In this document: one piece after another, positions 5,739-61,304 of the stretch
How positions within the stretch are numbered: position 1 is the first letter of the stretch
Layout of the letters: every line of letters begins with the position of its first letter
NCBI RefSeq assembly: GCF_964204645.1
Contig: NC_134025.1
Span: forward strand, 23,664,299 to 23,728,298
Reading direction: 5' to 3'
DNA from: Tubulanus polymorphus
Lineage: Eukaryota > Animalia > Nemertea
Length of the DNA stretch: 64,000 nt
Notes under the pieces: generated by a model
The model's database searches: none
What the model saw: only the letters and a program-made list of their open reading frames with translations
What the model was told of the DNA's origin: nothing
Made by a program: the position numbers and the translations under genes

Positions 5739-8654
5739 ATGGATGACGATATACTTAACTGTGAATACAAATGTTCCTATGATTTTGATGTGAATTTACT
5801 AAATCATGATGGCAAAGATTCACCTCTCAGTTTTTTTCATGCGAATGTACGAAGTGCAAATAAAAATTTTGATTCATTTTCCGATTATCTCCAAACTTTG
5901 AACTATAATTTTTCAATTGTCGGTTTGTCAGAAACATGGACTGATGACAATTGTCAAAATGATTCATTGTATCATTTGCCGAATTATTCGAGTTTATTCC
6001 GCAGTAGAAACGATAAAGGAGGTGGCGGAGTTGCGCTTTTGATTAAAAATTCTATAAATTTTAAGATCAGAGATGATCTCTCCTTAGCTGAATCTTTGTT
6101 TATAGAAGTCCCTCTTAAACCGAAAAGCATTATCGTCGGAGTTATTTATCGTGCTCCTGATAGTGATATAGCTAATTTCATCAAAGAATTTCAGTCATTT
6201 ACTGAACGCGTAAATAAAGAGAAATTAGATGTTTTAATTTTGGGGGATTATAACATTGATTTCGGAAATTACGGTGCGAGTGGTCAGTGTGACGCTTTTA
6301 TGGATGAGGCTATTTCCAATTCATTTATGCCATTAATTAATATCCCTACTCGTGTCACTGACCACTCGTCAACCGTAATTGACAATATTTTGGTAAACTT
6401 TTTTGATAATTACAGTTTTACTAGCGGTGTATTTTTGGCGGACATAACTGACCATTATCCTATTTATACTTTTGTTCACGGTTTGTACGAGTCTCATGAT
6501 ACTAAACTACCGCGGATTAAAATCCGAGATATTAATCCTCGGACCACGGAACGCTTCACGCGCTGTTTATTATCATGCGACTGGCAAAATGTGTATAATA
6601 GCAATGACCCAGAAGTCTCATGTAAGGAGTTCTATAACATTGTTGATTATTATTTTGAAATCTGTTTCCCTTTTAAGTATGTAACTCCTGGCGTGGAGAA
6701 AAATGATAAACCGTGGTTAACCTGTGGTATTCGACGTTCTATCAAACAGAAAGAAAAACTGTATAAAAAATATTTACGTAAAAAAACCCAGGAATGTAAG
6801 GATAAATATTGTACGTATCGAAATAAGCTCAATTCGATTTTAAAGAAATGTAAGCAAATGTATTATAAGAATGTATTCGCCTCCTGTAAATCAGATCCTA
6901 AAGAAACATGGAAACAGGTTAATAACTTACTCAATAAACAGAAACGCGATAAACCCCATTCTCAATTTGTATATAAAGACAAAGTAATTTCAACAGATTA
7001 TGATATAGCCAGTGGTTTTAACGACTATTTTGTTAATATTGCCGGCTCCTTAGAATCAAAAATACCGCCTTCCGATAAACATTTTAAAGATTTTCTAGAG
7101 GAACGAAATCATATAAACTTTTTTCTGTCACCGACGACACCCAATGAAATTGAATTAATTGTGCATGGCTTTAAAAATAAACTATCCAGTGGTTGTGATC
7201 AAATCAGCACTAAACTATTGAAATCAATAATTCAAGTTATTTCACAACCCCTTTGTCATATTTTTAATAATAGCTTTCTTACGGGTATTGTTCCTAGCAT
7301 ATTTAAGATCGCTCACGTAACACCTATTTTTAAAAGTGGCGATAAATCGCAGTTCAATAACTATCGACCTATTTCTGTCCTTCCCGCTATATCTAAGATA
7401 ATAGAGAAACTCGTTTATAATAGACTCCAGGCATTCCTTGAAAATTTCAATATTCTATCAGATCGTCAATTTGGTTTCAGGAAAAATAGATCCACTGCCT
7501 CAGCCTTAGCATTTATTACGGATAAGATAACTGATTATCTTGAAAATGGCAAAGTCACGATTGGTGTCTTCGTTGATTTGTCAAAGGCTTTTGACACAAT
7601 CAATCATAATATTTTAATTTCAAAATTGGAAAATTATGGAATTCGTGGGCCCCCTCTACAATGGTTTCGAAATTACCTAGAAGACCGTAAACAATGTGTT
7701 AAATATAATAACTCCTTATCTCCAACTAGAAATATAACTTTCGGAGTTCCTCAAGGCTCAATCCTAGGTCCTTTGCTTTTTCTTGTATATATCAATGATT
7801 GCCCCTCTTCTTGTAAACTCCTAGAGTCAATTTTTTTCGCTGATGATAGTAATTTTTTCATCAGCGATAAGGACCCCAAGAAACTAGAGCAAGTTTTAAA
7901 TTCTCAGCTGGAGAAACTTCTTCAGTGGTTTCGAGCAAATAGGCTCTCTGTGAACGCTATTAAAACTCATTTTATTGTCTTTGGTTATAAGTGTCTAGGT
8001 CAAATTAATCTTTTTTTCGATGGACAAAGAGTTTCGCGTGTAGATAGTACTAAATTCTTAGGTGTAATTTTTGACCAGAGACTGACATGGCGGGACCATA
8101 TTCAATACATCTCTCGAAAGGTTTCCCGGGGAATTGGAATCATCAATAGGCTTAAACATGTTCTTCCTTTTGGTGTTCTTAAAAATTTATATTATTGTTT
8201 TGTCAATCCACATCTTGCATATGCAACTTTAATCTGGGGTAATTCATGTAATATTTACTTGGAACCCTTATTTCGTCTCCAAAAGAAAGCAATTCGGATA
8301 ATAACACATTCTTTTTGGCTAGCACATACATCTCCAATTTTCAAGAAATTAGAAATCTTAAAGCTACACGACATATATCAATTTCAGCTGTGCAATTTTG
8401 TCTTCAGTCAAATTAATCAAAACTTACCATCAATTTTCAATGAATTTTACTGTTTTCTAAAATCCATGACAGGGCGACCTTCTCGTCGCCCACTAAATTT
8501 AAAAGTGGAATATGCGAAATCTAACTTTAGAATGAAATCATTAAAAATCCAAGGTGCAAGATCCTGGAACTCCCTTCCCAGAAAACTCAAATCTTCGAAA
8601 TCACGCCCTTTCTTTAAAAAATGCTTAACCAATTATTTGGTCGCAAAATACTAA
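5739..8654 (+). CDS. LINE ORF2: AP endonuclease + reverse transcriptase
   Basis: HANVRS, GLSETW, GGGVA, VIYRAP, GDYNID, TDHYPI (APE); NYRPISVL, QFGFR, DLSKAFD, GVPQGSILGP, FADD (RT); no internal stops. Confidence 0.95.
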   Translation: MDDDILNCEYKCSYDFDVNLLNHDGKDSPLSFFHANVRSANKNFDSFSDYLQTLNYNFSIVGLSETWTDDNCQNDSLYHLPNYSSLFRSRNDKGGGGVALLIKNSINFKIRDDLSLAESLFIEVPLKPKSIIVGVIYRAPDSDIANFIKEFQSFTERVNKEKLDVLILGDYNIDFGNYGASGQCDAFMDEAISNSFMPLINIPTRVTDHSSTVIDNILVNFFDNYSFTSGVFLADITDHYPIYTFVHGLYESHDTKLPRIKIRDINPRTTERFTRCLLSCDWQNVYNSNDPEVSCKEFYNIVDYYFEICFPFKYVTPGVEKNDKPWLTCGIRRSIKQKEKLYKKYLRKKTQECKDKYCTYRNKLNSILKKCKQMYYKNVFASCKSDPKETWKQVNNLLNKQKRDKPHSQFVYKDKVISTDYDIASGFNDYFVNIAGSLESKIPPSDKHFKDFLEERNHINFFLSPTTPNEIELIVHGFKNKLSSGCDQISTKLLKSIIQVISQPLCHIFNNSFLTGIVPSIFKIAHVTPIFKSGDKSQFNNYRPISVLPAISKIIEKLVYNRLQAFLENFNILSDRQFGFRKNRSTASALAFITDKITDYLENGKVTIGVFVDLSKAFDTINHNILISKLENYGIRGPPLQWFRNYLEDRKQCVKYNNSLSPTRNITFGVPQGSILGPLLFLVYINDCPSSCKLLESIFFADDSNFFISDKDPKKLEQVLNSQLEKLLQWFRANRLSVNAIKTHFIVFGYKCLGQINLFFDGQRVSRVDSTKFLGVIFDQRLTWRDHIQYISRKVSRGIGIINRLKHVLPFGVLKNLYYCFVNPHLAYATLIWGNSCNIYLEPLFRLQKKAIRIITHSFWLAHTSPIFKKLEILKLHDIYQFQLCNFVFSQINQNLPSIFNEFYCFLKSMTGRPSRRPLNLKVEYAKSNFRMKSLKIQGARSWNSLPRKLKSSKSRPFFKKCLTNYLVAKY

Positions 8655-11325: not shown

Positions 11326-13210
11326 ATGAAGTTTTTCATCGTGTTTGCCGTGATCGTAGTTGCTGCCCAGGGTAAGTTTTAAGTTACTCACATCTGAAAT
11401 GTCTTGATATGAAAGAAATGGCTGCGCTTTGGCATTTATCTTGTCTATACATGTACTATGATATTTATGTTCGACGTTGTAACATCGATGTTCGTTATAA
11501 CTTCAAAATATTTCGAACACCAACAGGCTGTCCAGATTTTATGTGCATGATGCATTGTGAACACGGTTTCCAAAAGGGACCTGATGGTTGCGATATTTGT
11601 TTATGTAACGAGGAACCAGGTAAACATTATTACAGTCTTTATCCAATGATGTCACTTGAAATATTGTTACATCTACATAGAAATTGTCATTGAAATTAAA
11701 TCTACTTTCTATTCTATTTGCTCGTGTTCTTCACGGATACATTAGAAAAGAGAAGTAAGTTTCATATCACAGAGATCTAATAAGACGATTGGTAAATTCC
11801 ACTTCTTTACATATGAATGTATGAATAACTGTTTCTAATTCCAGGCTGCCCAGATGTAATGTGTATGGTGCATTGCGAGCACGGGTTCCAGAAGGGACCT
11901 GACGGCTGTGACACATGTCAATGTCACGACGAACCAGGTATGTATAATTCAATATTCTTATTTTGACGACGATACAATAATAATGACGCGTGGAAGTACT
12001 TAATGAATCATCCATCTTTTTTCTTTTTTACACAGCTGCATTAGAAAAGCGAAGTAAGTTTATTATCCTTGTAATAAAAAAAATGGTCATAATGGTGGTA
12101 ATCGGAACTTGCGTTTTACATTGACTTGCTTATATTTGATTCTAGGCTGTCCAGATGTAATGTGTATGATGCATTGCGAGCACGGGTTCCAGAAAGGCGA
12201 TGATGGTTGTGCAGTCTGCAAATGTAACGAGGATCCAGGTAACTTTGATTTGAAAATAATCAACATATTTCCATTTAATTGAACTTCCTCCGAAAATAGA
12301 ATCTCATTCACAATCTCATTCATATTTCGGGGCTTAATCGAGTGTATTTGAAATTTCAATAAAAACGCAAGATTTTTTTGCAGCTGAAGTAGAAAAAAGA
12401 AGTAAGTAGAATAATGAGCGATAGGATTTGAAGCCAAGGACGTTGCCCAAGCATTTTGAGTGTAAAATTCGGCTATTCATTTACTTCGATTTCATTTCTC
12501 TTAGTTATTCAAGATGTTTCCTCGATATGAATCGATAAATCCTTGTTTTTTTTTGTTTTCTGCCAAAAGGTTCAAAGCATTGTAAGACATGTAGAATGCA
12601 CTGTCCCCACGGTTTTGTAATGGGAGCTGATGGTTGTCCTTCGTGCGAATGCCGCCAGATTGAGTTGCCACCTTTACCTGAAGGTAATGTCACCAACACC
12701 TAGTTTTATTATATATTTTTCATTTTACATGCATATAGTTATGAAGAAAAAATGTTGTTAAAAACTTTCTTGAACTTTTTTAAACGGATGATAATTTCTG
12801 ATATTTTATCACATCTATCCGTTTAGAACATTGTAAGACATGTAGAATGCATTGCCCAAACGGTTTTGTGATGGGTGCTGATGGCTGTCATTTGTGCGAA
12901 TGTAAACAAGTACTACCTCCACTCGAAGGTATGTCGCATCACATTCTGGGACTTTCTTTATCTATCGATGCTTACGTCTATCCTTGTATCTAATCCTCAT
13001 GATTATGTTCAGTTCCAGCGAGAAAACCGTGTAGAACTTGTAGAATGAGATGTCCGTACGGTTTCGTTATGGGCACAGACGGTTGTCCAACTTGTGAATG
13101 CAAAGAAAGTCATCAATGTACGTATATATATCTACGAAAGGATCGTTTATGCAAATTCTTCTGAAGTTAAAATTCTCATCTTGTTTAATTTTGTTTTTAT
13201 TTTCACAGAA
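11326..13210 (+). CDS. Antistasin-like secreted polyprotein gene 1 (signal peptide + 6 six-Cys domains)
   Basis: Signal exon 11326-11371 (MKFFIVFAVIVVAAQG). Domain exons 11527-11619, 11845-11937, 12146-12238, 12570-12683, 12827-12928, 13013-13117 (C..CxxxCxxGFxxGxDGCxxCxC). KR micro-exons 12036-12053 and 12384-12401, plus 11737-11754 with a GG acceptor. Stop T|AA is split by the last intron. AATAAA ~13320. Confidence 0.88.
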
Positions 13211-13642
13211 AATCTAAGTGTTGATCTGCGTGTGTGACAATTTTCCAGTTCCGGTGCTCTTATAATTAATTAATCAAAAAGATCGTAAAATTCACACCAT
13301 TATGATATACATGGAATGAAATAAAGAAAACGTTTTAGTAAACAGATGCATTTTCTTAGATTTGTTTTGGTTGTTGTTAACCGAAAGCTCCATTATTATA
13401 TGTAAATCACCAAAGTAACAAGTGGAGCGATAAGAGGAGACACGTATTTATCGGTTGAAGAAAAACGTCAGTCTAGAGCTAATCTGATAAAAATAGAAAT
13501 TTCATTGAATGCCACTTTCATTCACCGAACTAATGAAATGGTCAAAGCCTACCGATAAACGCGTTGACCTGTTGACTCGCTAATGGAAACCATGTGTTAA
13601 CTTTTACATCGATTAAATTGATAACCAAACGATTGAAACTAC

Positions 13643-13676
13643 TATAAGTACTACCAATAAACTATGCCGGTCACTT
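13643..13676 (+). promoter_or_regulatory. TATA box + initiator of antistasin-like gene 2
   Basis: TATAAG at 13643 and TCACTT at 13671, ATG at 13706. Confidence 0.5.
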
Positions 13677-13705
13677 CCACCTGAAGGAACGCATACAGAC
13701 GGAAA

Positions 13706-15321
13706 ATGAAGTTTTTGATCGTACTCGTCTCGGTTATCGCTGCTACCCATGGTGAGTGTTTTCATATTGCCGTCGATAATAGAAATCTTTAGCTAAAGGA
13801 AACATTTTTTCATGAACTGTTTTCCCTACTGAAGGCTGCTCTGATGTTATGTGCATGATGCATTGCGAAAACGGTTTCCAAAAGGGGCCTGACGGTTGCG
13901 ATATTTGCGCATGTAAACCAGGTACGTTTATAAACATAGTTATCGTTTGAGGATCTGTCAAATTATTCCGCAATGGTTATACCTTCGACATGAGAAAAAG
14001 TGAACATGCATATTCAAAATAAATTGAACCGATTATTACTTTTCAATAGCGATATAATATCACCCTGAAAAGTTGATCTCGTCCATTGGCATCTGGTAAA
14101 ATGTACATAGATCTAATTTCTAATTGAAGTCTGCTCAGAAGCTATGTGCATGATGCATTGCGAATACGGTTTCCAGAAGGGACCTGACGGTTGCGATATT
14201 TGCGCGTGTAACGACAAACCAGGTAATTTTGTATTACTATTAGAGCATAGAACCAGATAAAATGACAGAAGGAACTGTTTTTCTAATACATGTTTCTTTA
14301 TCAATCTCTTTACAGCTGCAATAGAAAAGCGAAGTGAGTTTAGATTATCTAGATAATGATTATCTACATAACATTTAATGGTCATACGAAGCATAAACAT
14401 GGAAACATGACTATCACGTTTACCCATACGACTCAAAGCGTAAATGTCTATCATTCCAGGCTGCCCAGATGTAATGTGTATGATGCATTGTGAGCACGGC
14501 TTCCAGAAGGGACCTGACGGTTGCAGCGTGTGCAAATGCAACGAGCCAGGTGTGTTAAAATATTTGTTTGAATCAAGTGATTTTTATCCTTATTAATTGC
14601 TTTATCAAATTTCTTTGATTTTTCCAATCGTATTTATCGTCATTCTTTTTTATTGATTACAGCATTAGTGAAAAGAAGTAAGTATATTTATTAGCGGCCA
14701 GTCAGTCAAGAACTTGTATATCAATCTGACTACACTATTCCATTATAACGTATATTAAAAGGAGTTCCATAATTTCTATTTTAGGCTGTCCAGATGCTAT
14801 GTGTATGATGTATTGTGAATATGGATTCCAGAAAGGATCTGATGGCTGTGATATCTGTCAATGTAAAGAAATACCAGGTAAGTTCGTAGCTTCCGTCATG
14901 CATCACATTGAGATATGTAGTTTCTATTTGATTTCGTAATTTGCTGGGTACGAAATAGTCATCATTCGCTAAAGATTGTTTTCCGTAATGTTTTTGGGTG
15001 TAAAAAAGTTTTGCATCAGTACTTAAATAAGTCTTTTTCGTTGATAATTTTCGCAGCACCAAAGTTCTGTAAAACTTGTCGAATGAGATGTCCGAACGGT
15101 TTCATAATGGGCGATGATGGCTGCCCAACATGCAAATGTAAAGCAACTCCGGAAGGTATGTAAATAAAAGGTTATTATTGACACAATCTCATTCATATTT
15201 CGGGGCTTAATCGAGTGTATTTGATATTTCAGAATGTGCCCGCCGCCCAATGTGTAGAATGTACTGCCAAAATGGATTCATGCAAGGTCCCGATGGCTGC
15301 GACATCTGCAAGTGCAAATAG
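13706..15321 (+). CDS. Antistasin-like secreted polyprotein gene 2 (signal peptide + 6 domains)
   Basis: Signal exon 13706-13751 (MKFLIVLVSVIAATHG). Domain exons 13835-13921, 14130-14222, 14460-14549, 14785-14877, 15057-15155, 15233-15321 (TAG). Micro-exons 14316-14333 (AAIEKR) and 14663-14677 (ALVKR). Confidence 0.88.
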
Positions 15322-16882
15322 ACATTCGGGTACGTGGAGCGATCTGTTCGTGTTTCTTGTATGAAATTCTTCTTCGTAAAAATATCTTTTTCCTTCAGAA
15401 TTTCTTTCTCTGTATTTCCAGTCTCAAGATTCAAGAGATTCGAGTGAAAATCCCTGTGATTAATCAAAGTTTTTGTCTAATTTTTTCATTGTAATGAGAA
15501 ATGATAATAAACGAATGATAAAATGTAACATCTGAGTTTTTACGCGCCGATGGATATTTTTACATACACCTTCATCTCAGTTACGTCGAATCATTTCTAT
15601 CATTCATACAACTGTAGTTGTTGATTTCCAAATAATAAGAAACTCTAGATATATACTTCTCTAGTAATAAAAACAAAGTTTATTTCAAATAAAGAATTTA
15701 CATAATTGATAACACAATATTGCTGATAAGCTTCTATGGTTAAGATCGTTGGAAATTTAAAATCGACTGATAGTAAAATGGACTGGTGAGAAATGCGTTG
15801 GAAAGTGTCCTGTTGTTACGGCCAAGTTGGGAATCGACATCTCCATTATTCCTACGTAATACAACTGAATCATCGGCGAGTGAGCTGTTGTACTGAAAAA
15901 TTTGAATTTATAAATTGTAAGTTAAAATTGGAAAATCCGATTTTACAATTATTTGTATGTTTTATTACGTTATTTATTATGGAAAAATAGAACAAAATGG
16001 ACAATACTTCCGCTAAACATTGTCTCCATGGCAACGGAAAGCGAAATTTACATCTTAAACGAATTGATGATCGGTACTGCTGGCAAAGCAACAAATAGTT
16101 TAGCCATTAGATCATCGAAAAGTAACAACAAATTTGGTTTCTTAATTAGGATTTATTATTCCAAGTTATATTACAAAATAATGTAAATTCGAAATTTGTG
16201 TCAATTTTTCGAAATCCGTTGCCATGATTTCAGAACCATCCGTTCATTTCCTGTAAATAAAATTTCAATTGCGAATTCACAATGTCCATTCAGAAAACAA
16301 CGAAATTGATAAATGAATTTTTGAAACTCATACATACATAGCTTACCTTCTTGACGCGCCTCTAAATCCATATCCTCGATATCTGACCCTCAAACTATCA
16401 AATGTTTTGCGAAACAAACAAGATATTGCATTTTACATACCTGATCGGCGTTTTATTAAAAAGACAAAAAGGTCTACAAATACATCATGAATCGTTACGA
16501 TCAAATTGGACGCCGTCCAACAAAGTTTAGAGAGATATGTACAAAATGCAATGAATTTATACACGCTATATCATACTCCAGTAGTTGAAGCCTATGCTAA
16601 CCATCTAACGAGAGTGCAACTAGACTTCTATTCACCCGCGGTTAAAATCAATTGTCAACGAATTCCTTAAAATACATTCATCATCACAGTTTGTACGCCA
16701 TTTTGTACGCGATTCTATTTTCGTGATTGTCACCATAATATTCATAGCACAGTATATCATATATTGAAATTGTACAATAGCACTAAAAATCCCGGGTTTC
16801 ACTCCGATCGTCGGTAGGAAATATTATATCATTTGATAATATCCTTTGCGTAGAATCAATCCACAGGTGAATGTTTTCTTTT

Positions 16883-19800
16883 TTAATCACTGTGTAGATA
16901 CTTACTAAACGGATTCGGTCCTTTACGCTTCGGTTGCTTGGGAAGCTTCTTATCTGAAATGAAAGGAGGTACGGTAAATGATTACTGATAGTTCGTTGGA
17001 TTGACAAAAGTGGCTGCTAAGTGAATAGTATCGCACCATGTATGCCCATACAATCGACCCATTCGTCGATTGTGATTTTCTTGTTGTTATTCGCATCGCA
17101 GAATTTCACGAAATTTCTAGCGCATTTCCGTAACGATTTCTTTCCTTTCACGTCTTTGTTCGATCGTATTTCGAGTTTAAGATTTCGTCTTTCGCGTCGG
17201 TCGATCATCTGAAGAAGAATCGAAACGTCCAAATTCATCGATAAGTTTTATGAAATTCCCAAAGAAAAATGATCGCCCGAAGAAGCAGCACCGAACTTCA
17301 AGAGTAGACAGTATAATAAGAGACAGAAACCCTCACTCACGTTTTGAAAACATTAAAAATATTTCGTAAGTGCAACTTACCATATTATTATTTTCGTCCA
17401 ACATGTGAAGTTTCCAACGTATAGCCTGTTCCTCTATCGAATGTTTTGGATCAGGATCTGGAACTTTCCTGCAAAACAATATGTAAACTTTTCGGTACTT
17501 TAAACGTATGGAATTCAATGAAATAAATCAAATTGAATTCACGTTATCATAAAGGAAGTCACTCGGAATGCAGACATAAATCATCTCATTTTACTATGGG
17601 TTACATCAAAAGTACATAAAAAGGATGTATTTTTGCTTGCATATATTTCTGAAATGTATTCATTGAATCCAGTAGGTGTCTCACCTTGTACCGGTATTGT
17701 TGTTGGCATATTCAACCATATCTTTAGTCATTTTGTCTAACTGGGCGGTTATGAACCTTCTCCTGTGCACAGGTGGGCAATCTGTTGCAATAAGAATAAA
17801 ATAAAGAAGATAATATTAATTCCAATTCAGGTTCATTATAATTCGTATATATGTTACACTTATATGGACCTTTCATGATACGTATGTTGATGTTTTCGCA
17901 ACTCGGCGTTACTTTGAATGTTGATGTTCCGGCGATTGGTACGCCCGTATTTTCATCTGCACACCAGCAATAGCCAGTCGACTCGTGACACTGGGTCGAT
18001 TGAAATTTACCAGCCGCGCTGCATTTCGGTATGAATATATTACCATTCGGGTCGGTTCGATGGTTTTCCAGGGCCACTTTCCGTTCGTGCGCGCAATCTT
18101 TCGTTTCTTAATAAAAATGAGCTTTTTGTAGCAACATGTATACGTATATATTGCACGTGCATTTATATAATGAATACATTTTTTTTCAAACTAAAGCTGA
18201 GTTCTAGGATTCTTACCTTCGGTATTATCAGTATCTTCCTCTTCTTCTTCATCTGTTCCCACATCGAGCCAAGCAGCGGCGCCACCTGATAAATCTTTGT
18301 GTAAAAACGGAAAGGCATTCATCTCATTAAACAACATAATTTTGCAAATATCTTACAATAAAGAAATCATTAATCTAGTCACTAATAGAGGATGTACCTT
18401 GTTCATGTTGTATAGATAGTGTTGTGCCCGAAGTAACTATTCGTCTTAAACAAATTATATTTCTAGGAGTGAAGTGCTTTGTGAAAACTAGCTTTTTACT
18501 ATTCTGATGAACTCAGAGCTCATTTTAAATCTTACTCATATTTTACCGAATGTGTATATATATTTTTTCAACTTCACAGTCGACGAGGAAAATCTGGTAA
18601 ACTCTGCCTTACCTCCTAGCTTGCTAATGGTTGACTTCTTTTCGGGCGTGATCAGAGGTCGCGCGGTGACTTGCTTAACGTCTGAGTTGAGCGACAAAAA
18701 CAAGCGGAATGAAACTATATAAGACAGGTGTGAGGAGCCCTGTTCTAGTCGTAGAACAGGAAATATATTGCACTTATGCCCGGCCTGCTTTTACTGGTTA
18801 GCAATTACAAGAACAGATAAAAAGAAGACATTAGCAGCGATGTTAGCAAGCGAAAGCAATAAATTTGTTTGGTTCTGTTTATCATTCGAAACTGTAGTTT
18901 CACACTTTTGTTTTTCACAGTTTTGACCAAAAGAGAAAAAAATCTCCAAATTTTCTGTAAGTTGATAATTACGCACCAGAAAAACTATTCCGAGCAAAAT
19001 GCGTTTACGCCACAAAATCCAGTGTTCGGTGTTCGCAACATGTGCTTTTTACAATTGTTGTTATACACAAGCAAGCGAAGCAGTTACCTATTTTCTAAAG
19101 TAAGAGCGGGAATACGAAGATATTTTACAGAAAGACCCCACCACCGTCATTTCAGATACATACTCAGACAAACACGCATCCATTCGGCGATAAGAAATGA
19201 ATTTATATATTTTTCGATTGAGTTGAATAAACCTGAACTAATAATTTAATATTCACCACAAGCATCATAGGTCTTATCAAACAAAGAAGCATAAACGACT
19301 CAGGCTGTAGCTACGGAGAATTTTTTACATCATCTAATTATACATTCACATTCTAGCGAATATGGTTCAATTGGGTTCAAGCATTTGTTGAGATTAAGAT
19401 ATTTGGTTGTTTACTAATTCATCGTTACTCTGTCAACTTAGTTTTGGGTCTGGAATTTGCCGCACGATGTAAGCAATTTTTACGTAGTGATTTTGTCAAT
19501 AATGGGAAGGAAAACAAATATGCGTACATACACGCACGCACTCACACGCTCACATATACAAAAATATTGCACATTTCCCAAACGTTTTCTGCTTTCTTAG
19601 ATCATGCCCGGTTAACTCTGACCGCTACTTCGTGTATGACTGTCTCGGCTCGTATTTGAATTCTATTCTAAAACACTGCGAAGATGACTTACTATTGATA
19701 TCGACTCCAAGGCAGACGGACCATTCGCTGCGAGCTATGCGGCTGTCAGAATCTATATCACAGTACTGCATGAAATCGCGGGCACATCGTTTCGGTTTCA

Positions 19801-22800
19801 CGTGGCGTCGTATCATCCGAGTCAGTGAACGTATTTCAGACTTCTTCAGTCGGTTATCTCGGTTTTTATCCATCTCACTGAACTTCCATTCGATCACTCG
19901 TTTCTCGAACGTGTCTGCGAAATGTTATCATTATTTTTTTCCTCATTATTTCAAAGACAAGATTAATATCATTCGTACACACGTTTTATTTAATGTAATC
20001 ATCTGAGATTAAGATGAATGTTTACTCCGATATGAGGATTTGCGTAATAAAAAAGCTCTTGGGATTAATTTGTGAAACTATAAGACAATCGTGTATTCGA
20101 TGTTTATAATGCCAAAATTTCGAAATGATTAATTGTGCAATTCACCATCGTGGATTTATTCCGTTTGGATGGTGTTCACGCTTCAGTTACATGTTTACTT
20201 AGAATTACCTGTAATCCCACTTTGTTTTAATTTCGGTTGAGAGTCTTTCGGTAATCTATGATATTCCTTTTTAAATAAATTTACGAGATTTGAATTAAAC
20301 GTTGATCTATCGGTTTGGTTGCATCCTGTAAAGATAAAGTTCAATACTTTTCAATACTATAATTGGTAAGGAAAAATGGTTAAAATGTAATGCAGTCAAA
20401 ACTTGAAGACCAGGGACACCGTGCCCACTTGACAATCCGACAGCTTTAACACTGAACGCTCCCTGGTAAAATACAGAAACATGACCTCGAAACACGTCAC
20501 AAACACATCAGGATTTTGGCAAACACTACTGGCTGCAAGCGTGATTCTGATCAGGCCAATTTCTAAGCCGCCGATGTGTCGTCTGGACATGTACAAACGA
20601 AATATCAAGACAATCCATCGAAGCGTCTTCGAAACCTTTCAAAATAATTTGATTCCGTCTACGGACAGACAGTTGAACGAAAACTGAACGCAATAGCCCA
20701 CTTGGGGCAGCTAAAAACATACCCTTCTTTCCCTTTAAGCGTTTCTTTCTTTTCTTTCCTTGCTCTAGAAAAAAAAACAACAAATGCAAAATATAAGAAT
20801 TGTGAATTTCGAAAATATATATCGTAGAAAATCGGAATCGAAGTTTATTATGGTTGCTTTAGGGTAAAACTACCAAGGGAGTTGCTGATTACTCATCATT
20901 TCAAAGAAAATAGTACTTTTGCATTTTCGTGCTCGAACAACTCTGATTAGTCCAAGTCGCCCTTGCTGCGAAAATGAATGCTAAAATAAGTGCAGCTTGT
21001 CTGGCGATCGATCTTTCTCTGAGACAGACTACAAGCGGCGGTCACAAGATAAATCAAGATTTGATCGCGAATAGAACGTAGTTGTTCGAAAGCAGATCGC
21101 TATCTGCGGTCATACGTCGTTGACGTAAATTGCTTCGTAAAGAAAATTAGCCGGCGATATAGATTTCGAAATGGACGTCGGTTTATCATCAACGCCGCAA
21201 TAGAGCATATAACTTAATATGCTTATGTACGTACTAGAAGATGTGCTTACCAATTTCACCCGAGCTTAGCAAAAGCTACAGAGTGTGCTCTGCACCAATT
21301 CAATTCAATTCAAAATACAACAAACGCGTGTACTCGTGAAAGAATTTCCAGCTAGGCCACTTACTTTGGCATTTTGGTTTCTTTCCTTTTACTGATGTGC
21401 CTGGAATGGGTTTGCCTTCCTTGTTTACGCACCAGCAATAACCAGTGGCCTGGTGGCATTGCACCTTGGAAAAAGAACCATCTGCCTCGCAGTTCGGTAT
21501 GTAAATGCCCACAACTCCAGCCCCAGTCGCCCCATCGGACTGCTGTTGGCTTTTCTCAGCTTTCAGTTTCTCCTCTTGACAACGCGTTGGGTCTAAATGA
21601 GAACGAGAAAACTGACTGGCAAGTTTATTGGTTATCTTGCTAAATGATGTCTAGAATAAATGATATAATACAAATTGTATAATATTATGGACCAATACAG
21701 TTATTTCGGATTTCAATTGACCGGCAACGAGCGAAGTATTGATGACGTCGTGCACATCCTCTCAAAAATAATTATTGGAATTTATCAAAAATAGAATAAG
21801 GGTTACGAAATATATCTAATTAGAAAATAAACACCAAAATTCACAATTGCAATTGTTATTTTGAAACGCCAATATTGATGACGTAGTGCACGTCGCCTCA
21901 TACAGAACCTCTTAAGTAACGCATACTAGGTATATATACAAACATTATTCTAACGGTTTTTATAGCGTCAGAAAATTAGAAGATATCTTTTTGACTATAG
22001 CATTTCATTCCATAATTCTAGGTGAATATTTTTTTAAACATGTATAAGTGGACTAAATTGTCTCGGTCGAACCAACTCGCAGGTGGCGAGGTATATTGTA
22101 GCGAATAGAAATATTATGACGAATAGAATATAAACGGATTAGTCGTAGATTTTCGATTTGGAAATTTCATTATGTGAAATGTCATCTTTTGACGCAACTT
22201 AAACAAAATGCAGGTGTACATTTCGTGTGTGTGTGTGTATGTGACTGAGCAATATCTATGGACATTTCAAGTAGTTCTGAATAAGATCTTTAACTCGAGT
22301 GGTCGTGCTGGCAACAATACTCATTTCGAGTGATTAATTTGTGATGTGAACATTTCGTGGTTGAAGTGTGCAACCCGAACGTGAAATTATGCGCAATCTA
22401 TAGACATAGACATGACGTGATCCACAAAACCGAACCAAACCAGCACCTGCACGATAATGGCCCTATTTGATTGTTTCAGCGTCGTACGGGACATGCAAAG
22501 ATCAAGCGCAAAACTTGAACGTGAGTTTAGTGTTTTTTTCGATGAAAGGTTGAGATTTCTTACAAGTCAACACGTCTGTCTGTACCGAAAAAATTGCGAT
22601 TTCACGAGATTTTTATACAGGTGGCCTAAAAGCTGAAATGGCACATCCTTCTTAGAATCGTTCAACGGTGAATAGAATTGTACATCGTTTATTTCTAGTT
22701 TTTAAGAGGACGCTCGACTTCAATTGAAATCGGGTTCATGGGAATGTGAGAACTTACAATATGGCATTACATAATCTAAAAAGGACATTATGATTCAGAA

Positions 22801-25800
22801 ATAAATGACGATCATCTGATTATGAACAAATGGACGCAAATTCAGACTAGAGACATAACGCGCCAACGCACATATTCTCGTAATTGAGCAGATTTATCAT
22901 GTATCAATTTTTGTATAATTTCCGTATAATGTTTGGTATCTCCATCAGACGAGAACTGTTGCAATTGGGCTACTAACATTTGACATAAGTCAACTGCTTC
23001 ATCATTTTGTGACTGTAGGTATTATCACACGCGTCCTTCTAATATTCCAGATTTAGACGATACTAAAGAAGATATACTATTAAACTAACCTGAACATTTT
23101 CCTTTTCTTATTACTTTGATCGGTCGCTTTTCGCAAGTTTTCAAACGCAAAATCTCACATCTGGATTGATACGTTCGACCGTCTGAGGCACATACTTCTC
23201 GCGGCTTAATCTGCGTACAGTTCACCGAACAATTTGTGCTTCGACGGAATCGCAATGATGAGATCTAAAGAGAAGAAGATTAGCATGTCAGTCAAAATTG
23301 AATATTCTTTGTTGAACTGAAGTGAATATCCTAATGACGATTTCTGAAATTGGTTCATTAATTAACACATTTCTCTCAACACTATTTTGGTTTTGGATGT
23401 CTGATCTTCAAAAAATAAACGTTGTCGAAAAGGACTCGGGATAGAATCGTTGCATCTATTTTGTTTCGGAAAGCCTTTTCTCAACGGATATCAAAAGCTG
23501 CCGATGTATCGAAGCAGAATGGGAAACGACAAAATACCGGAGAGATTAAAATGTCGGTTAGGAGGAAATGTTGTCCTACTTTTGGTGGTCATCAGCGTAC
23601 ATACATACGAATGAATGTAAAAGGAAATACGTGGCACGTGTAAGGAAACTATATATTGCAGAGAACTTGCGAGAGAACAAAAAATTTGAAAATTGTCAAA
23701 ATCGGTGGTACTAATTCGGCTGCTTTTGTATTTGTTTGTTTCTCAGCTACGGATTCTTTAACTAGCTCGACTCTTTAAAACATTAAGAAAGATCATCTCG
23801 TAATTTTTCGACGTTTCTTTCTGATAATTCGTTTGGCCACCTTCAAAACTTACGTAAACCCCGAGTAATGAACTTCATCGGGTCACGTGTTAACTATTCA
23901 CCGCAACCCATTTAGACTATTTCAACCAGAATTGATGCACTCAATAAAGCGAATTACGGTGACAAAAAACCACCGTACGTGCAACCACCCTGGAGAAAAT
24001 CTGCTTGATTCTTTGCGAGGTTCGGCACCTTTTTTCCAATTTTCGATGCTCGCATAAACACAGCCGTCTTCAAGTGAAAAAATGCCAGGGCGGATCTAGG
24101 GGAGATGTCAGGGTGTCCAAACCCCCCCTCAAATTTGAAGTGCCCTCAAAATGTCACCCCAAAATATTTTTTGGACCAAGGTTTTCCACCCATAATAGTT
24201 TTTTCAACGCATGAAATGACCGAAAGCACCCCTTAAAATGTTGTAGAAGTATCCGGAGTACGTAGTGTTTCGTAGATAGTGCCCTTTTTTCTCATTGGAC
24301 CCCCCTCCCCCCATGGAAAATCCTAGATCCGCCCCTGATGGATCACATTCGATTCGCATTCGATAATCACATCGCGTTTACAATAACTGCCAAATGAGCA
24401 AAATGGCTTCGATGTAGTTCAAGAGACTCTCACTGTCCTGTCGAGATTATAACACTTTCTCTTGTTTATGGGCTTCACATATGTCATTACTTGAGGTCAG
24501 CGTAAAATGAGCTACCTCAACTGACATGTAGATACAGGGACATATAATGTAGCTTACACACATTTTTTACATTGACTTGATTATGATCATTTTGATTTTC
24601 AAAATGCTCGTAAAACGCTCGTAATATATTTTTACATAATGTACATAATCTTATTGTTACTTATTCTACCATAATCATAATGAAGCAACGAGAGCCGGGT
24701 GCGGGCTTTCAATAAAACTGAAAAACTCATTCTAGATTCCTTCTTCTATATTGGAAAAAAACTAGAAACAACTGCGTTTAGATTTCCCGATAGTTCCGAC
24801 ACTGCTGTGATAGTTTTTTTCTTTAGATTTCAGGTACAAATTCTTAAACGAAATCGTTTGGTTAACGACCGGAATTCTTTCGAAGAAAAGAAATCGGCCC
24901 GTACTTTTTTCTGCTTTTAATTGTAAAGAGAAATGATTTTTCGCATTTCGTGACCTCCCATATAGTCTGGATGATATGGCAGTGTGCGAGGATATCTATC
25001 ATTATCTAGATTGAAGTCTTGTAAATGCACTCACTGCTCCATTGTGATGGGCACGATTTGGATATACAGGAGTCTATTTAATTCAATGAGATAAAAATTA
25101 ATAAGCGACAATACTTTTCATAGTCTGCAGTGTGTCATCATCGCCGTTGAAATATGTCAACGCCGAGTAGATTAAAGACCAGACGATTTGTCAAAAATAG
25201 AATGGTCGCCCGGGTTTTTGAAGACTTCGCAATATTACGATATAAGAGTGGCTCTATTAGTTTATTATCGGTACATTATACCGATGCGCAAAACGAGAAA
25301 TAATTTCAGGGTCGTACATGCAAAATATTATGAATGTGATAATCGCTTTGTTGATAACGCTTATTACACTATGGTGCGTGAAAAATAGCAAATAACAATG
25401 TCGATCTACAAAACTACAGCAGTCTGTAACTCGGTGAAAAAATGCGTTTACTTCACGGGCACCTATTGCGACGGGGAATAAACACCCATACGTTGCCACA
25501 GGGCTCACATTGAAGCCGAAATACCACCTTCGAAGCGTCGGAAGTTTTGATTAACAATTACCCGACAGAAATGATCGAGAGTCTCTTAGCTGCCGCGACT
25601 ACGGTCGGAACAGCAGGGATCTTATTGTTGAATCGCGGTGACCGGAAAATCCGTACGCGACGGCATCAAAACGATGATGTTGCTAAGCATAGTCCGTATT
25701 TTGTAATTTTGATTTCTAGCCCACCGACCGAACACGCTGCGAATTTTTCAATTGAGAGTGTACTTTTCAGCTAGATAACCTCGATTAGATAGATTATATG

Positions 25801-26084
25801 GAAATATATATGTGCAGAAGATGTTTTTGTCCTTAGACAATCATATCTACATATCAACAAAACCATATCTAGATATATACGTGGGCCTTGAAGCAAAATA
25901 ATTTCATACCTAAAAAGACTTAGCATAAGTAGTTTTTCAAACGATATAATACGTACTATATTGCATAATGATATATGTTTCGAACCTGACGTACCTGTTG
26001 TAAACCTTCAGTGTAACTAAATACTAGGAATCCTGTTAGGCATATAGTTTGTAATGTATTCCACGACAATACCCTGTGTTCCAT
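16883..26084 (-). CDS. SMOC: SPARC-related modular calcium-binding protein (SMOC / pentagone-like)
   Basis: Signal-peptide exon 25995-26084 (MEHRVLSWNTLQTICLTGFLVFSYTEG). Kazal/FS exon ~23090-23264 (VCASDGRTYQSRC). Thyroglobulin-1 exons ~21365-21592 and ~17869-18106 (QCH..TGYCWC). EF-hand exons ~19693-19914, ~17381-17468 and 17037-17207. Last exon KRKGPNPFSKYLHSD* ends at 16883. Confidence 0.9.
24085..24337. mobile_element. MITE with ~16-bp terminal inverted repeats in SMOC intron 1
   Basis: CCAGGGCGGATCTAGG ... CCTAGATCCGCCCCTG, flanked by ATG on both sides (possible 3-bp TSD, PIF/Harbinger-like). Confidence 0.75.
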
Positions 26085-27372
26085 ATCACGATTCCGATCT
26101 CTTCAAGTCACTTCTGATCTAAATATTACAACCAGGGAGAGAGCTATAAATAATATCGTATCCTCTAGTCGGACTCGTTAATGACTGTCGATGGAAATAT
26201 GGGGTAATCGCTGATGTGAACCATACGTCTCGATTGCGAATGAATGTCACCAGAAAGAGCGTGCAGCCCACGCCGTGTTTTCGCGACAATTGACAGGGAA
26301 CCAACTGCACATAGACGACCAGACAGTCGCACGATATTCACCGAATGAACATCAGCCCAATGAAACGTTACGCTAAATCCCAGAATCGTAATCGCTCGGT
26401 CATGTGATTTGACTAATGCGAAGAAATATTTCTCTTTGATTGGTTCTGGTGCGAATAGCATGCCGATGTTTATATGAAAAGCGCGTGTAGATCTATTTAC
26501 AGCTCGAAAAAGGGCTCGAAATTAAAGTCTGATGGGTCACGGTAATGCGTGCTTTTCGTTAATTTCGCAATGGATCGTCCGCAGCGCAGACACGTTTTAC
26601 ATGCGTGTGACGTGATATATTATACGCTTAAAATATTCTCGCGTTTAATACGACACGATCAAGAGGCAATATTCATTGAATAACTGGGCAGATAAATGGC
26701 ACACCTGCGAAAACATCCATTAGCCCGTCCATTATTTTTCAAGTACGGGACATTCTTGTAGATCTTGGAACTTTCAACTCTTGAAAGTCCCTCGCTTGTT
26801 TTGAGTGCCGGCGGTGCACCGAAATTCGTGAGATCGTGAAAAGCGTTGAAGTTTTTTCCCGCACAAACCGGTTTTCACGATTTTTTTTTAGTAACCGAAC
26901 ACAACCACAATTCACGCTGTAAAGCAAGCATCGAGTTAACTAAAAGGAATTTTGAAACTGTGGCCAATCAGCAAAAGAAGTCGTTCCTTAAATCTCGACC
27001 GTGATAGCTTCCGACAAATTGCCATATTTTCTCTCGGAAATTTCTCTCGTGCCAAAAAAGTAGAATTTGTGTGATTTTTGTGCTGCTTTCCTTATGGTCT
27101 GCGTGATGAGAAATTGTAAACGAAAAATGTCATTACAAACCAAATATTCAGATATATATATATATATGTATATCATATTTTATTTTCCTTTTTATGTACG
27201 AAATACACAGGTTTCATGATTTGTTAGAATATGTGAAATCGTAGATACACGTGTTTCAAAAATCTGAAAAAGAAATAGAAATATGTAACGAGGAATCAAG
27301 TATACAGTACAGATTTACGTAGCGAAAATGTGACATAGTAATCGCATACGTACATTTTCAATTGCGATGAAG

Positions 27373-27492
27373 TTAAGCGCATTTACATAATGGACAACCA
27401 TCGTTTCCCATTACGAAACCGTTTGGACAGTACATTGCGCAGGCGACACATGGCTTGGCTGAAAAAGATGCATTGTATCATTTAATGGATTC

Positions 27493-27527
<35 letters not shown>

Positions 27528-30500
27528 CACAGAAAGACAAGATTGATTGAGACAACTTACATCTCTTCTTGGCTGAAATCAAATAAAAATAAAACCGTTT
27601 TGTACCTTAGAATAACGTGATCGACTATAGTTTGAATATAATTCAAAGTGACTAATTACCGATACTTCGTTTCGACTTTTTGCATTTGCAAAGTGGGCAT
27701 CCGTCCTTTCCCATCACGAAACCATTTGGACAATACATCTTACAGGTAATACAGGGTTTCCTCTTGACAAGTGATGCTAGAAAAATATTTGAAAGCATTG
27801 GAAAATACTTTGAATACTAATGTAGAGAGTTGTTGGTTCTCGTTCTTTGCAAATGTTGCGTCTTTTAGTGAAAATCGGAGTAATGATGAAAATGATGGAG
27901 AACATCGATTAATCAAACTTATGCTAAATGAGGCTGATATTCATCTCACCCTTGCATTTACAGATGAAACAACCATCGGGTCCTGTTTCAAATCCGTTCT
28001 CACAAAACATAGCACACATTGGACGACGAGCGCATTCTAAAGTAACAGATTTCATAAATGTATTGTTTACCGATACAAGTATTATCACTATCATTTAGGC
28101 ACTAGTATATTCACCTTCAGGGGTAGCTTTGCATTTACATATGGGGCATCCGTCATTTCCCGTAATGAATCCATTCGGGCATTCCATGAAGCATGTTTTG
28201 CATGGAGCTAGAAATTAAAATGGCAAAGATGAGGTATATATGCGTTAATTGTTATAGAGCTGTGATGTCTGATGATTAATCCGTTATCATTTACCTCTCT
28301 TTTGCATTAATTCAGCTGAAAGGGGAATATCCGTGCGATTAGTATTCCTTAGACAAATTCCTTAGATACGTCGTGTCATTTATGATATAACTAATAAAAC
28401 TTACGTGTTGGTTTGTCGTTACATTTGCAGATTTGACAACCGTCCGCTCCTCTCTGGAATCCATATTCACAGTACATCATGCACATCTCATTTCCGCATT
28501 CCGCTGAAAAAAAGAATATTTAATATCTGTAAAATTCATTTGACATTTTTCAATATTTCCATAGTTTAGTAATACTTATTCTTAATCATCCACTGATATC
28601 AGGTTTTTTGAAGACACACTTACGTTCATTTCTTTTGGCCAATTCAGCTGGAAAAATGAATACATTTAAATATAGTATAGAGTTTTCAAAATACAGATTA
28701 TCGAGAAACGCTTGAAGGTATATAACCTACGTTTTGGTGGGTTACATTTGCAAATTTCACAGCCGTTAGCATCAGTTTGGAATCCAAATTCACAGTACAT
28801 CATGCACATAAGTTTACCGCATTCTAGAAGGGGATTCAAGGTTCGATAGAATTCATTTTCAGTAAAGAATTTGGTCGATTTTTCATGATAGATATATATA
28901 TATTTTTGGTACTTTACCTCGTTTCTGCCTCAATTCAGCTAAAAAGACAAAAAAAATAAAATAATGAACGGTATGGAAAAACATCATCTTGCAATAATAC
29001 ATAAAATTCAGGGAAAAATACTTGAAGTCTGATATGAAAATGTACGTATTCAATCTTTCTCGATAGCAAAAAAACTAGGTATGCAACTTACGTTTTGGCG
29101 GGTTACATTTGCAAATTTCACAGCCGTTAGCATCAGTTTGGAATCCAAATTCGCAGTACATCATGCACATAGCTTTACCGCATTCTAGTTGGAAACCGAA
29201 TAGATATGATGTAATTAAGTGACCAAATAATGATAAAATCAATTCGAAATTAGTTTACTTATTTGGAAATGTCTATTTTACCTCGCTTCTGTCTCAATTC
29301 AGCTAGAATTATAAATAAAAATATTTTTATTTTTCAATCAATTCTTCTCTTATATTTCTTAAGTATGTGACGGACAATAAACTAATAAAACTTACGTGTT
29401 GGTTTGTCGTTACATTTGCAGATTTGACAACCGTCCGCTCCTCTCTGGAATCCATATTCACAGTACATCATGCACATCTCATTTCCGCATTCCGCTGAAA
29501 AAAAAAATTTAATATCTGTAAAATTCATTTGACATTTTTCAATATTTCCATAGTTTAGTAATACTTATTCTTAATCATCCACTGATATCAGGTTTTTTGA
29601 AGACACACTTACGTTCATTTCTTTTGGCCAATTCAGCTGGAAAAATGAATACATTTAAATATAGTATAGAGTTTTCAAAATACAGATTATCGAGAAACGC
29701 TTGAAGGTATATAACCTACGTTTTGGTGGGTTACATTTGCAGATTTCACAGCCGTTAGCATCAGTTTGGAATCCAAAATCACAGTACATCATGCACATAA
29801 GTTTACCGCACTCTAGAAAGAGATTCAAGGTTCGATAGAATTCGTTTTCAGTAAATAATTTGGTTGATCTTTTTATGATAGATATATCTGTCAGATACTT
29901 AACCTCTTTTCTGCCTCAATTCAGCTAAAAAGACAAACGAGTAAAATAATGAAAGGTATGAATAAAACATCATCATGCAAACAATGTATAAATTCAGGGA
30001 AACACTGGAAAGGTCAAATATGAAAATGAAAATGTACGTATTCAATCTATTTGGGTAGTAAAGAAAGCAAGGTATGCAACTTACGTTTTGGTGGGTTACA
30101 TGCGCAAACTTCACAACCGTTAGCATCAGTTTTGAATCCAAATTCACAGTACATCATGCACATAACTTTGCTGCATTCTAGTTAGAAACCGAAATAGATA
30201 TGACGTAATTAAATGACCAAAAAAATCATAGAATCAATTCGAAATTAGTTAAAAATGTCTATTTTACCTCGCTTCTGTCTCAATTCAGCTGGAAATTATT
30301 AATAAAGATAAACATTTTTTTTCAATTTTTCAATGTATTCTTCTCTTATATTTCTTAAGTATGTGACGAACAATAAACTAATAAAACTTACGTGTTGGTT
30401 TGTCGTTACATTTGCAGATTTGACAACCGTCAGCTCCTCTCTGGAATCCATATTCACAGTACATCATGCACATCTCATTTCCGCATTCCGCTGAAAAGAA

Positions 30501-32184
30501 GGATATTTAATATCTGTATAATTCATTTGAGATTTTTCAATATTTCCATTATTTAGCAATACTTATTCTTAATCATCCACCGATATGAGGTTTTGGAAGA
30601 CAAACTTACGTTCATTTCTTTTGGCCAATTCAGCTGGAAAAATGAATACATTTAACTATAGTATAGAGTTTTCAAAATACAGATTGTCGAGAGACAATTG
30701 AAGGTGCATGCAACTTACGTTTTGGTGGGTTACATTTGCAAATTTCACAGCCGTTAGCATCAGTTTGGAATCCAAAATCACAGTACATCATGCACATAAG
30801 TTTACCGCATTCTAGAATTAGATTCAAGGTTCGATAGAATTCGTTTTCGGTAAAGAATTTGGTCTATTTTTTATGATAGATATATCTGTTAGGTACTTTA
30901 CCTCGTTTCTGCCTCAATTCAGCTAAAAAGACAAACAAGTAAAATAGTGAACGATATGAGTAAAGCATCATTTTGCAAACAATATATAAAATTCAGGGAA
31001 ACACTGGAAAGTTCAAATATGAAAATGTATTTATTCAATCTTTCTGGAAAGAAAAGAAAGCAAGGTATGCAACTTACGTTTTGGTGGGTTACATGCGCAA
31101 ATTTCACAGCCGTTAGCATCAGTTTGGAATCCAAATTCACAGTACATCATGCACACAGCTTTACCGCATTCTAGTTGAAAACCGAAATAGATATGATGGA
31201 ATTAAGTGACCAAATAATGATACAATCAATATGAAATTAGTTTACTCATTTGGAAATGTCTATTTTACCTCGCTTCTGTCTCAATTCAGCTAAAAATTGT
31301 AAATAAAAATAAACATTTTTTAATTTTCAATCTATTCTTCTCTTATAATTCTTAAGTATGTGACGAACAAAAAATAAAACTTACGTGTTGGTTTGTCGTT
31401 ACATTTGCAGATTTGACAACCGTCCGCTCCTCTCTGGAATCCATATTCACAGTACATCATGCACATCTCATTTCCGCATTCCGCTGAAAGAAAAAACATT
31501 CTAACTCATAAAGAATCGTAACCTTATTATGTAACTAATTAAATACTATTGATTGTTCATTTGTTTACGAAAAAAATGGATTTATAGCTCGTATTTCGTC
31601 GTATGTTTTTACAATTATTCGACAATAAGAGGTTTTCAAAGACAATCTTACGTTCGTTTCTTTTTGCCAATTCGGCTGGAAAAAAAGAAAATCATATACA
31701 TCATATATACGATCAGGAAATTGATGATGAGTTACTATGTTGTGCAGCAGCCACTTACGTGTTGGCTTTGTGTTACATTTGCAGATGTGGCAGCCATCAG
31801 GTCCTGTTTGGAATCCGAATTTGCAGAACATTTTGCACATGGGACGTTTGGAACATTCTATCGAGAAAAATGCATACTGAAATTACTATCCATAATTTTT
31901 TTTTGTTGAAATATCTACACGTATATATTATGGTATTGGACACATTTGGTTGAAATTTACCTTCGAGAGTAGCTTTACATTGGCATTTTGGACACCCATT
32001 TTCACCCATCACAAATCCGTTCTCACATTCCATAAGACACTGCCGGCATACTTTCGCTGAAAATGTATAATTATTTATATACGGGCATGTCAATTTGATC
32101 GATTACATATATATGGGGATAATTCAAACAGGACTTACCAGTAGCAACGACTATCAGAGCAGCGAATATTATAAGGAGCTTCAT
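27373..32184 (-). CDS. Antistasin-like secreted polyprotein gene 3 (signal peptide + 16 domains, 12 cleavage-site micro-exons)
   Basis: Signal exon 32139-32184 (MKLLIIFAALIVVATG). Domain exons with lower coordinates 31961, 31759, 31385, 31078, 30719, 30392, 30085, 29720, 29396, 29092, 28731, 28405, 28115, 27950, 27660, 27373 (TAA). Micro-exons encode PELAKRNE, PELRQKR, PELMQKR and AKKR. All coding introns are phase 1. Confidence 0.9.
28385..31490. repeat. ~993-bp tandem repeat (3+ copies), each unit = 3 domain exons + 3 micro-exons + introns
   Basis: A near-identical ECGNEMCMMYC exon recurs at 28405, 29396, 30392 and 31385, with conserved introns. Confidence 0.92.

Positions 32185-48275: not shown

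Positions 48276-48581
<306 letters not shown>

Positions 48582-50083: not shown

Positions 50084-61304
<11,221 letters not shown>

Follow-up and report, generated by a model that had tools for sequence, protein, structure and literature searches.

Antistasin-like chains of Tubulanus polymorphus with dibasic linkers on micro-exons, likely precursors of small peptides predicted to inhibit serine proteases

Three genes and their antistasin-like modules

The 64-kb window of the Tubulanus polymorphus genome analysed here, meaning the whole stretch of 64,000 nucleotides (nt), contains three genes, termed A, B and C, which encode tandem arrays of six-Cys modules related to the leech inhibitor antistasin. 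A six-frame motif scan identified 28 such modules in the whole window and none outside these genes. They cluster at 11.5-15.3 kb on the forward strand (genes A and B, six modules each) and at 27.4-32.1 kb on the reverse strand (gene C, 16 modules), and each of the 28 is located inside one exon bounded by AG and GT. The exon models display open frames of 225, 209 and 610 amino acids (aa) for genes A, B and C, respectively; all model introns are phase 1, and the introns of gene C are flanked by GT..AG in 28/28 cases. Exon 1 comprises 46 nt in the three genes and encodes a hydrophobic signal peptide, the 3/3 first exons reading M-K followed by a hydrophobic core with a grand average of hydropathy of 3.3-3.6 (an assignment by hydropathy). 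A TATA-like word is located 5′ and an AATAAA 3′ of each gene.

Gene A extends from 11326 to ~13210 on the forward strand. Its signal-peptide exon (11326-11371), preceded by TATATAA at ~11268, ends in a phase-1 donor and is followed by modules 1-3 (11527-11619, 11845-11937 and 12146-12238), which display a C-x4-C spacing and a Met at the position aligned with P1, and by modules 4-6 (12570-12683, 12827-12928 and 13019-13117), a tethered triple of C-x2-C modules with Arg at P1. The last exon, starting at 13209, completes the stop codon, T|AA, which is interrupted by the last intron (13117/13209) in phase 1 like the other introns of this gene. Gene B (13706-15321, forward strand) comprises the signal-peptide exon (13706-13751), four P1-Met modules (13835-13921, 14130-14222, 14460-14549 and 14785-14877) and two P1-Arg modules (15057-15155 and 15233-15321), the latter exon also containing the stop codon. 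A stretch of ~40 bases (CACAATCTCATTCAT...) is common to an intron of gene A (12302-12345) and to the intron of gene B located just before its last exon (15186-15229).

Gene C occupies 32184-27373 on the reverse strand. The coding part of its exon 1, which encodes the signal peptide, maps to 32184-32139; a spliced contig extends to 32247 and a TATATAA is found at ~32278-32272. Modules 1 and 2 (32056-31961 and 31857-31759; P1 Leu and Lys) constitute a tethered C-x2-C / C-x5-C pair with no micro-exon between them. They precede ten P1-Met exons of 93 or 99 nt (modules 3-12, 31483-28405) and a second tethered C-x2-C / C-x5-C pair (modules 13-14, 28207-28115 and 28036-27950; P1 Phe and Ala). The exon of module 15 (27776-27660, 117 nt) contains a KR at both ends (SLVKR and KSKR), and module 16 is encoded together with the stop codon at 27458-27373. 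The C-x2-C / C-x5-C pair is seen three times, never with a linker exon. In the Met region a tandem unit of ~1 kb comprises three module exons and three micro-exons; it was missed by Tandem Repeats Finder, for which the period limit was 500. Homologous introns of the inner repeats display 80-100% identity, and the Met part of gene C grew via duplication of this ~1-kb three-module unit.

The family of the modules was assigned with Pfam, where 16/16 exons scanned (of 28) pass the curated cut-off of PF02822, with 29.6-45.6 bits versus 21.2. The pattern C, C, C, G, F, G, C, C, C is invariant in 23/23 aligned exons. A profile of these 23 exons matches six solved sequences, all of them leech inhibitors (including antistasin, bdellastasin, hirustasin, guamerin and gigastasin) and in the six-Cys subdomain only; in 1skz, for example, it covers residues 28-55 and 82-111 alone. 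The AlphaFold model of one 32-residue module exon (mean predicted local distance difference test score of 83) adopts a two-strand hairpin, for which Foldseek returned leech inhibitors in 8/11 rows at 1.5-2.9 Å, none of them significant, and no match at E 0.001. There was no usable match in the ESM Atlas, and the pacifastin family was absent from the Pfam matches of the 16 exons at E values up to 0.1. A prior reading of the DNA, based on the letters and open frames only and referred to here as the sequence-only reading, had proposed antistasin-like modules, each encoded by one symmetrical exon. The family assignment is upheld, as is the one exon per module; the last module exons of genes B and C, which hold the stop codons, are not symmetric.

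The six-Cys core and the P1 position align with those of leech antistasin, hirustasin, bdellastasin and guamerin. Leech domains contain ten cysteines in two subdomains, with one or two domains per protein, while the modules described here contain six cysteines and occur 6-16 per chain. The comparison with leech antistasin made in the sequence-only reading is thus loose, holding for the six-Cys C-terminal subdomain and failing for the ten-Cys two-subdomain architecture. Across the 28 modules the P1-aligned residue is Met (17), Arg (5), Lys (2), Ala (2), Leu (1) or Phe (1). Guamerin is described in the available text of PMC6265900 as having Met at P1 and inhibiting chymotrypsin- and elastase-like proteases, Arg or Lys being the mark of trypsin-type inhibitors. 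The Met-P1 modules resemble guamerin and the Arg/Lys-P1 modules resemble hirustasin and bdellastasin. We infer that most of the modules predicted to be released, with P1 Met, would be of the chymotrypsin/elastase type as is guamerin, and that several tethered modules, with Arg or Lys, would be of the trypsin type. In a tree of the 28 cores, which with 84 columns is a rough guide only, the eight C-x2-C modules stand apart (support 98/96) and the 17 Met modules are grouped more weakly (86/93).

It is unlikely that the chains are cut into peptides directed against targets other than proteases, for instance ion channels or microbes, on which certain small disulfide-rich peptides of secretions act. 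Such a function would agree with the lack of the N-terminal subdomain of leech inhibitors, with the statement in the available text of PMC7851590 that the role of these proteins in non-bloodfeeding animals is unclear, and with a weak match of one module to a scorpion toxin family (E 0.013, below the cut-off). The binding region argues otherwise: the position following Cys2 is occupied by Met, Arg, Lys, Leu, Phe or Ala and the one behind it by Met in 27/28 modules, as in a canonical binding loop of varied specificity, and the Met, Arg and Lys states match P1 residues of leech inhibitors. If lone 30-residue modules do inhibit elastase-type proteases, they would define a minimal antistasin scaffold.

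Linker micro-exons and splice joints

Between the module exons lie 16 canonical micro-exons of phase 1-1 and 12-24 nt (two in gene A, two in gene B and 12 in gene C), all of which encode K-R. Those of genes A and B, known from genomic sequence only, are located on the forward strand at 12036-12053 (18 nt, (A)ALEKR), 12384-12401 (18 nt, (A)EVEKR), 14316-14333 (18 nt, (A)AIEKR) and 14663-14677 (15 nt, (A)LVKR). In gene C, on the reverse strand, four micro-exons of 24 nt encode PELAKRNE (31675-31652, 30633-30610, 29636-29613 and 28647-28624), six of 21 nt encode PELRQKR (31289-31269, 30922-30902, 30288-30268, 29924-29904, 29302-29282 and 28938-28918), one of 21 nt encodes PELMQKR (28315-28295) and one of 12 nt encodes (A)KKR (27572-27561); together they supply 255 of the ~1,830 coding bases. 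The micro-exon screen recovered 15/16, and that at 29924-29904, which has the weaker donor GTTAAG, was identified by eye. A similar screen applied as a chance control to the 54.4 kb outside the genes (9-30 nt, both strands) yielded 85 candidates, two of them with KR, versus 16/16 within the genes.

Outside the Cys cores there are 18 KR sites, 16 on micro-exons and two within module exon 27776-27660, and in the canonical gene model 8/25 linkers lack KR. The first 18 bases of this module 15 exon (27776-27759, reverse strand), which encode the SLVKR, have the length, phase and wording of the linker exons of genes A and B, and the exon is possibly a linker exon fused with a module exon via intron loss. 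The consensus R-X-K-R fits 6/18 sites (RQKR).

A further, degenerate linker micro-exon is located between modules 1 and 2 of gene A (11737-11754, forward strand). Homologous to the next linker exon and likewise 18 nt long, it has kept the KR codons and a GTAAGT donor but has a non-canonical acceptor; no contig of the runs examined covers it. The 115 bases before the donor contain four AG, one of them in frame, which would define a 9-nt exon (11746-11754) encoding E-K-R. Given this acceptor defect, the linker may be skipped, leaving a tethered pair, shortened, keeping the site, or polymorphic. A decayed counterpart between modules 1 and 2 of gene B was sought by alignment and none was convincing. 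The sequence-only reading had placed the convertase sites on dedicated micro-exons. Its eight named linker words were all found on phase 1-1 micro-exons, the set of 16 stands with the degenerate 17th overlooked, and the location on micro-exons applies to all but the two sites of module exon 27776-27660 and the linkers that lack KR. As for its furin/convertase motifs, the dibasic KR is common to the 18 sites and the four-residue R-X-K-R is confined to the RQKR ones.

Eight public runs, none of them catalogued as RNA, matched part of gene C, and contigs from four were aligned to it. Runs X5 and X6, which represent one sample, were considered transcript-derived because their contigs run through the exons and omit introns bounded by CT..AC, corresponding to GT-AG introns on the coding strand. 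Transcript support refers to gene C in this sample; runs X5-X8 yielded no contig on genes A and B, a result that speaks neither for nor against their transcription. Joints were called at a likeness threshold of 90 from contigs that lose rare forms, and identical copies are indistinguishable. Among 15 of the 16 joints of gene C, 14 are splice joints. Micro-exons joined to module exons comprise 31675-31652, the 31289-31269 type, the 30633-30610 type, the 28938-28918 type and 28315-28295; the letters of 27572-27561 are present between the flanking exons in contigs of both runs, and loose contig ends at 29814 and 29904 match micro-exon 29924-29904. The 12 micro-exons of gene C represent seven distinct sequences and 7/7 are found in spliced contigs, two of them on one side only; the micro-exons of the sequence-only reading are therefore present in transcripts of gene C. 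Both C-x2-C / C-x5-C pairs of gene C are joined directly.

Three long-range joints (28315-31385, 28503-31652 and 30177-31269) were examined as whole-unit skipping, an interpretation that was rejected in favour of placement on identical copies; a shorter allele is another possible source. A joint of run X3 that goes back 999 is a contig across near-identical repeats. At 31472 one contig of run X5 departs from the module exon into 255 unrelated letters and may be a chimera or derive from another paralog.

Every micro-exon can be skipped with the frame preserved, and from this the sequence-only reading had derived a switch between free monomers and tethered inhibitors. Regulated splicing of the 9-24 nt convertase-site exons would then set valency by tissue (monomers versus multi-headed chains), with exon gain or decay having the same effect over evolution. 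We consider this improbable. Partial inclusion is conceivable where a gene A linker exon has a non-canonical acceptor and a gene C one has a weak donor, P1-Met modules are predicted in both the tethered state (as in gene B modules 1-2) and the free one, and the best hint, the degenerate linker exon of gene A, is an evolutionary one. Against a switch, none of the 14 splice joints among those listed links two module exons across a micro-exon (0/14, in one sample and with contigs that lose rare forms), and canonical AG/GT boundaries are present at 16 micro-exons. The preserved frame follows from the way in which the genes grew: lengths are divisible by three because phase 1-1 units were duplicated in genes where all introns are phase 1, so that multiples of three are forced and uninformative on regulation. 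Tethering looks hard-wired, set by the presence or absence of a linker exon in the gene.

Predicted processing of the chains

The KR linkers are conserved at the protein level. Changes among the 21- and 24-nt micro-exons of gene C comprise 8 silent versus 1 replacement (p ~2e-5 against a silent-site share of 0.2), while the six 93-nt module exons of gene C display 5 silent and 10 replacement changes. In the 17 linker exons K is encoded by AAA or AAG and R by AGA or CGA only, and the preceding spacer residues vary in genes A and B. The sites are also far more frequent than in homologs: KR or RR occurs among the final six residues that precede the following module in 17/25 linkers, versus 13/612 short linkers in 209 homologs, drawn from the best 120 of 439 and the best 150 of 1,403 database matches, among which the three proteins of the window were not found. 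By this last-six-residue rule no homolog has more than one such linker, and when KR or RR anywhere in linkers of up to 30 residues is counted, the best 120 homologs have at most two per protein. One homolog contains four KK linkers, and the antistasin-like protein P0081 of Hydra vulgaris has EKR and EKK directly before modules together with one directly joined pair; basic linkers are thus not unique to T. polymorphus, and P0081 may, judging by its sequence, be processed in a similar way. Another antistasin-like protein of T. polymorphus, P0020, encoded outside the window, contains C-x2-C modules with acidic linkers lacking KR.

Conservation at the protein level together with a frequency far above the homolog rate makes a processed precursor likely. 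Secretion of whole, multi-headed proteins, with the KR words acting as charged spacers or being clipped outside the cell by trypsin-like proteases, is very unlikely. Homologs provide some precedent, since 599/612 of their linkers lack dibasic sites by the last-six-residue rule, and crayfish pacifastin provides another, since it remains unprocessed according to the available text of PMC2689174. However, KR is fixed just before the next module in 17/17 micro-exons while the spacer residues vary, and an invariant K-R order is not expected of a mere spacer. We regard it as probable that the three paralogous genes encode signal-led chains of six-Cys antistasin-like modules with KR linkers on micro-exons, which convertases likely cut into small peptides predicted to inhibit serine proteases.

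In general, KR is a cleavage site for convertases, after which carboxypeptidases remove the basic residues. In the available text of PMC9885460 this is applied as a working rule. Cleavage after KR would take place in the secretory pathway, followed by trimming, and would produce ~14 single modules of 2.9-4.6 kDa and 28-40 aa (12 from gene C and one each from genes A and B) together with two- and three-module pieces. In gene C, two tethered pairs would flank ten Met monomers (35-40 aa) and be followed by two monomers of 28-29 aa, with a tripeptide spacer also released; genes A and B would each provide a pair, a monomer and a triple, the gene B pair consisting of the tethered P1-Met modules 1-2. 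With three disulfides per module, the calculated average masses are 3,886, 3,900, 3,982, 4,058, 4,071, 4,562 and 4,587 Da for the single modules of gene C, 3,813 Da for that of gene A and 3,551 Da for that of gene B; the two-module pieces of gene C would have ~6.9 and 7.6 kDa, versus 21-65 kDa for uncut chains. The neuropeptide-like precursor advanced in the sequence-only reading consequently holds as a likely one, with pairs and triples predicted to stay tethered; its peptides of ~30-38 aa are widened to the predicted monomer range, and its example peptide would end in PELA after trimming, not in PEL. The duplication unit is proposed to be a module exon plus a linker exon, by which the dose of one inhibitor could rise through tandem duplication.

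Several points weigh against this processing scheme. The furin P4 Arg is absent at 12/18 sites, which are plain dibasic, and disappeared from one copy, where RQKR became MQKR. Having arisen by tandem duplication, the linkers do not count as independent observations, so that both the homolog contrast and the p-value exaggerate how many events there were, and gene predictions can drop exons of 12-24 nt, so that the homolog KR count may be too low. Transcript evidence comes from gene C in a single sample, and the short side of the joints comprises 21-24 letters. The solved leech inhibitors carry an extra four-Cys subdomain, absent from these modules, which makes the activity of a lone six-Cys module a prediction only. 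Finally, a related protein of another palaeonemertean was recovered in a proboscis proteome at 97% coverage as one mature chain of 106 aa (available text of PMC12846013).

The arrangement resembles several known systems in part. Schistosome micro-exon genes (MEGs) encode secreted proteins through mostly very short symmetric exons and generate variation by skipping. The likeness is that of secreted proteins with very short symmetric exons; here, in contrast, the micro-exons alternate with module exons of 87-117 nt, encode linkers only and supply a minor part of the coding sequence; as to skipping, the 14 splice joints from one sample of contigs contain no case. Hydra antistasin is described (available text of PMC7851590) as a signal peptide followed by six tandem repeats of 25-27 aa with six Cys and two Gly, similar to the C-terminal part of the leech domain. 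It shares with the present chains the signal peptide and the tandem six-Cys repeats of the same subdomain, and differs from them in that the genes described here have KR in most linkers, up to 13 per chain, on exons of their own. Among pacifastin-related precursors, as far as PMC2689174 is available, nearly 90% of the multi-domain ones contain dibasic sites, and in locusts cleavage of the precursors into inhibitors of one domain each has been demonstrated. These insect precursors (locust SGPP) are similar in having a signal peptide, several six-Cys domains, dibasic sites, gene clusters and exon duplication; their fold is unrelated, and one exon encodes one or more domains, with no exon for a cleavage site alone described in that text. 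On the best reading, the chains would work as insect pacifastin precursors do while consisting of Hydra-type antistasin repeats. In a literature search that covers subscription papers poorly, nothing was found on antistasin-like chains being processed at dibasic sites, or on exons that contain a convertase site and nothing else; the available text of PMC6954182 reports a microexon/furin case in which a SEA domain holds the furin site and the spliced linker is a different element.

A secreted mix of protease inhibitors, either defensive or acting in gut or mucus, is the likely role by analogy. For four other nemerteans, proteomes of the mucus or proboscis were reported to contain antistasin-like proteins (available text of PMC9132205, PMC10674772, PMC11768458 and PMC12846013), which belong to the same phylum and domain family, are from other species and are likened here by family alone; their occurrence in secretions is the reason for suggesting defence or venom. 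In another nemertean, a MALDI (matrix-assisted laser desorption/ionisation) peak at 3,543 m/z obtained from the proboscis and tentatively attributed to an antistasin-like transcript (PMC9132205, Fig. 4D, in the part available) fits the size of a single module. Proteomic data for T. polymorphus were not found in the literature; the scheme predicts exact small peptides that can be searched for in ribbon-worm secretions. With such processing, the antistasin fold would be added to the few inhibitor families known to be produced from neuropeptide-like precursors. As the processing site occupies an exon of its own that can be duplicated, copy number and the free or tethered state can shift by exon gain or decay, and since exons of 12-24 nt are easily missed by gene prediction, the design may hide in other invertebrate genomes.

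Neighbouring sequence features

A SMOC gene is located between genes A/B and gene C (26084-16895, reverse strand). It encodes two thyroglobulin type-1 domains and EF-hand regions and is unrelated to the inhibitor genes; T. polymorphus protein P0121, matched through an EF-hand exon at 19.7-19.9 kb, aligns to the window at 100% identity in six blocks, which places the window in this palaeonemertean ribbon worm or a very close relative. The span 11326-32184, assigned by the sequence-only reading to the inhibitor genes, includes all three of them and this SMOC gene as well. A location of gene C within a SMOC intron was considered and rejected, SMOC being mapped to 26084-16895.

A retroelement of the long interspersed nuclear element type (4718-8651, forward strand) comprises a frame of 229 aa matching GDSL esterase-like sequences, an esterase in ORF1 being a feature of CR1/L2-type elements, followed by a 984-aa frame with endonuclease and reverse transcriptase. 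A 972-aa open frame at 2-2917 (forward strand), without a Pfam match, is probably a long exon of a host gene. Exon fragments at ~53800-60600 (forward strand) show a putative resemblance to the eIF2-alpha kinase GCN2; three of these fragments gave no Pfam match. An (AT)151 microsatellite occupies 48280-48582.

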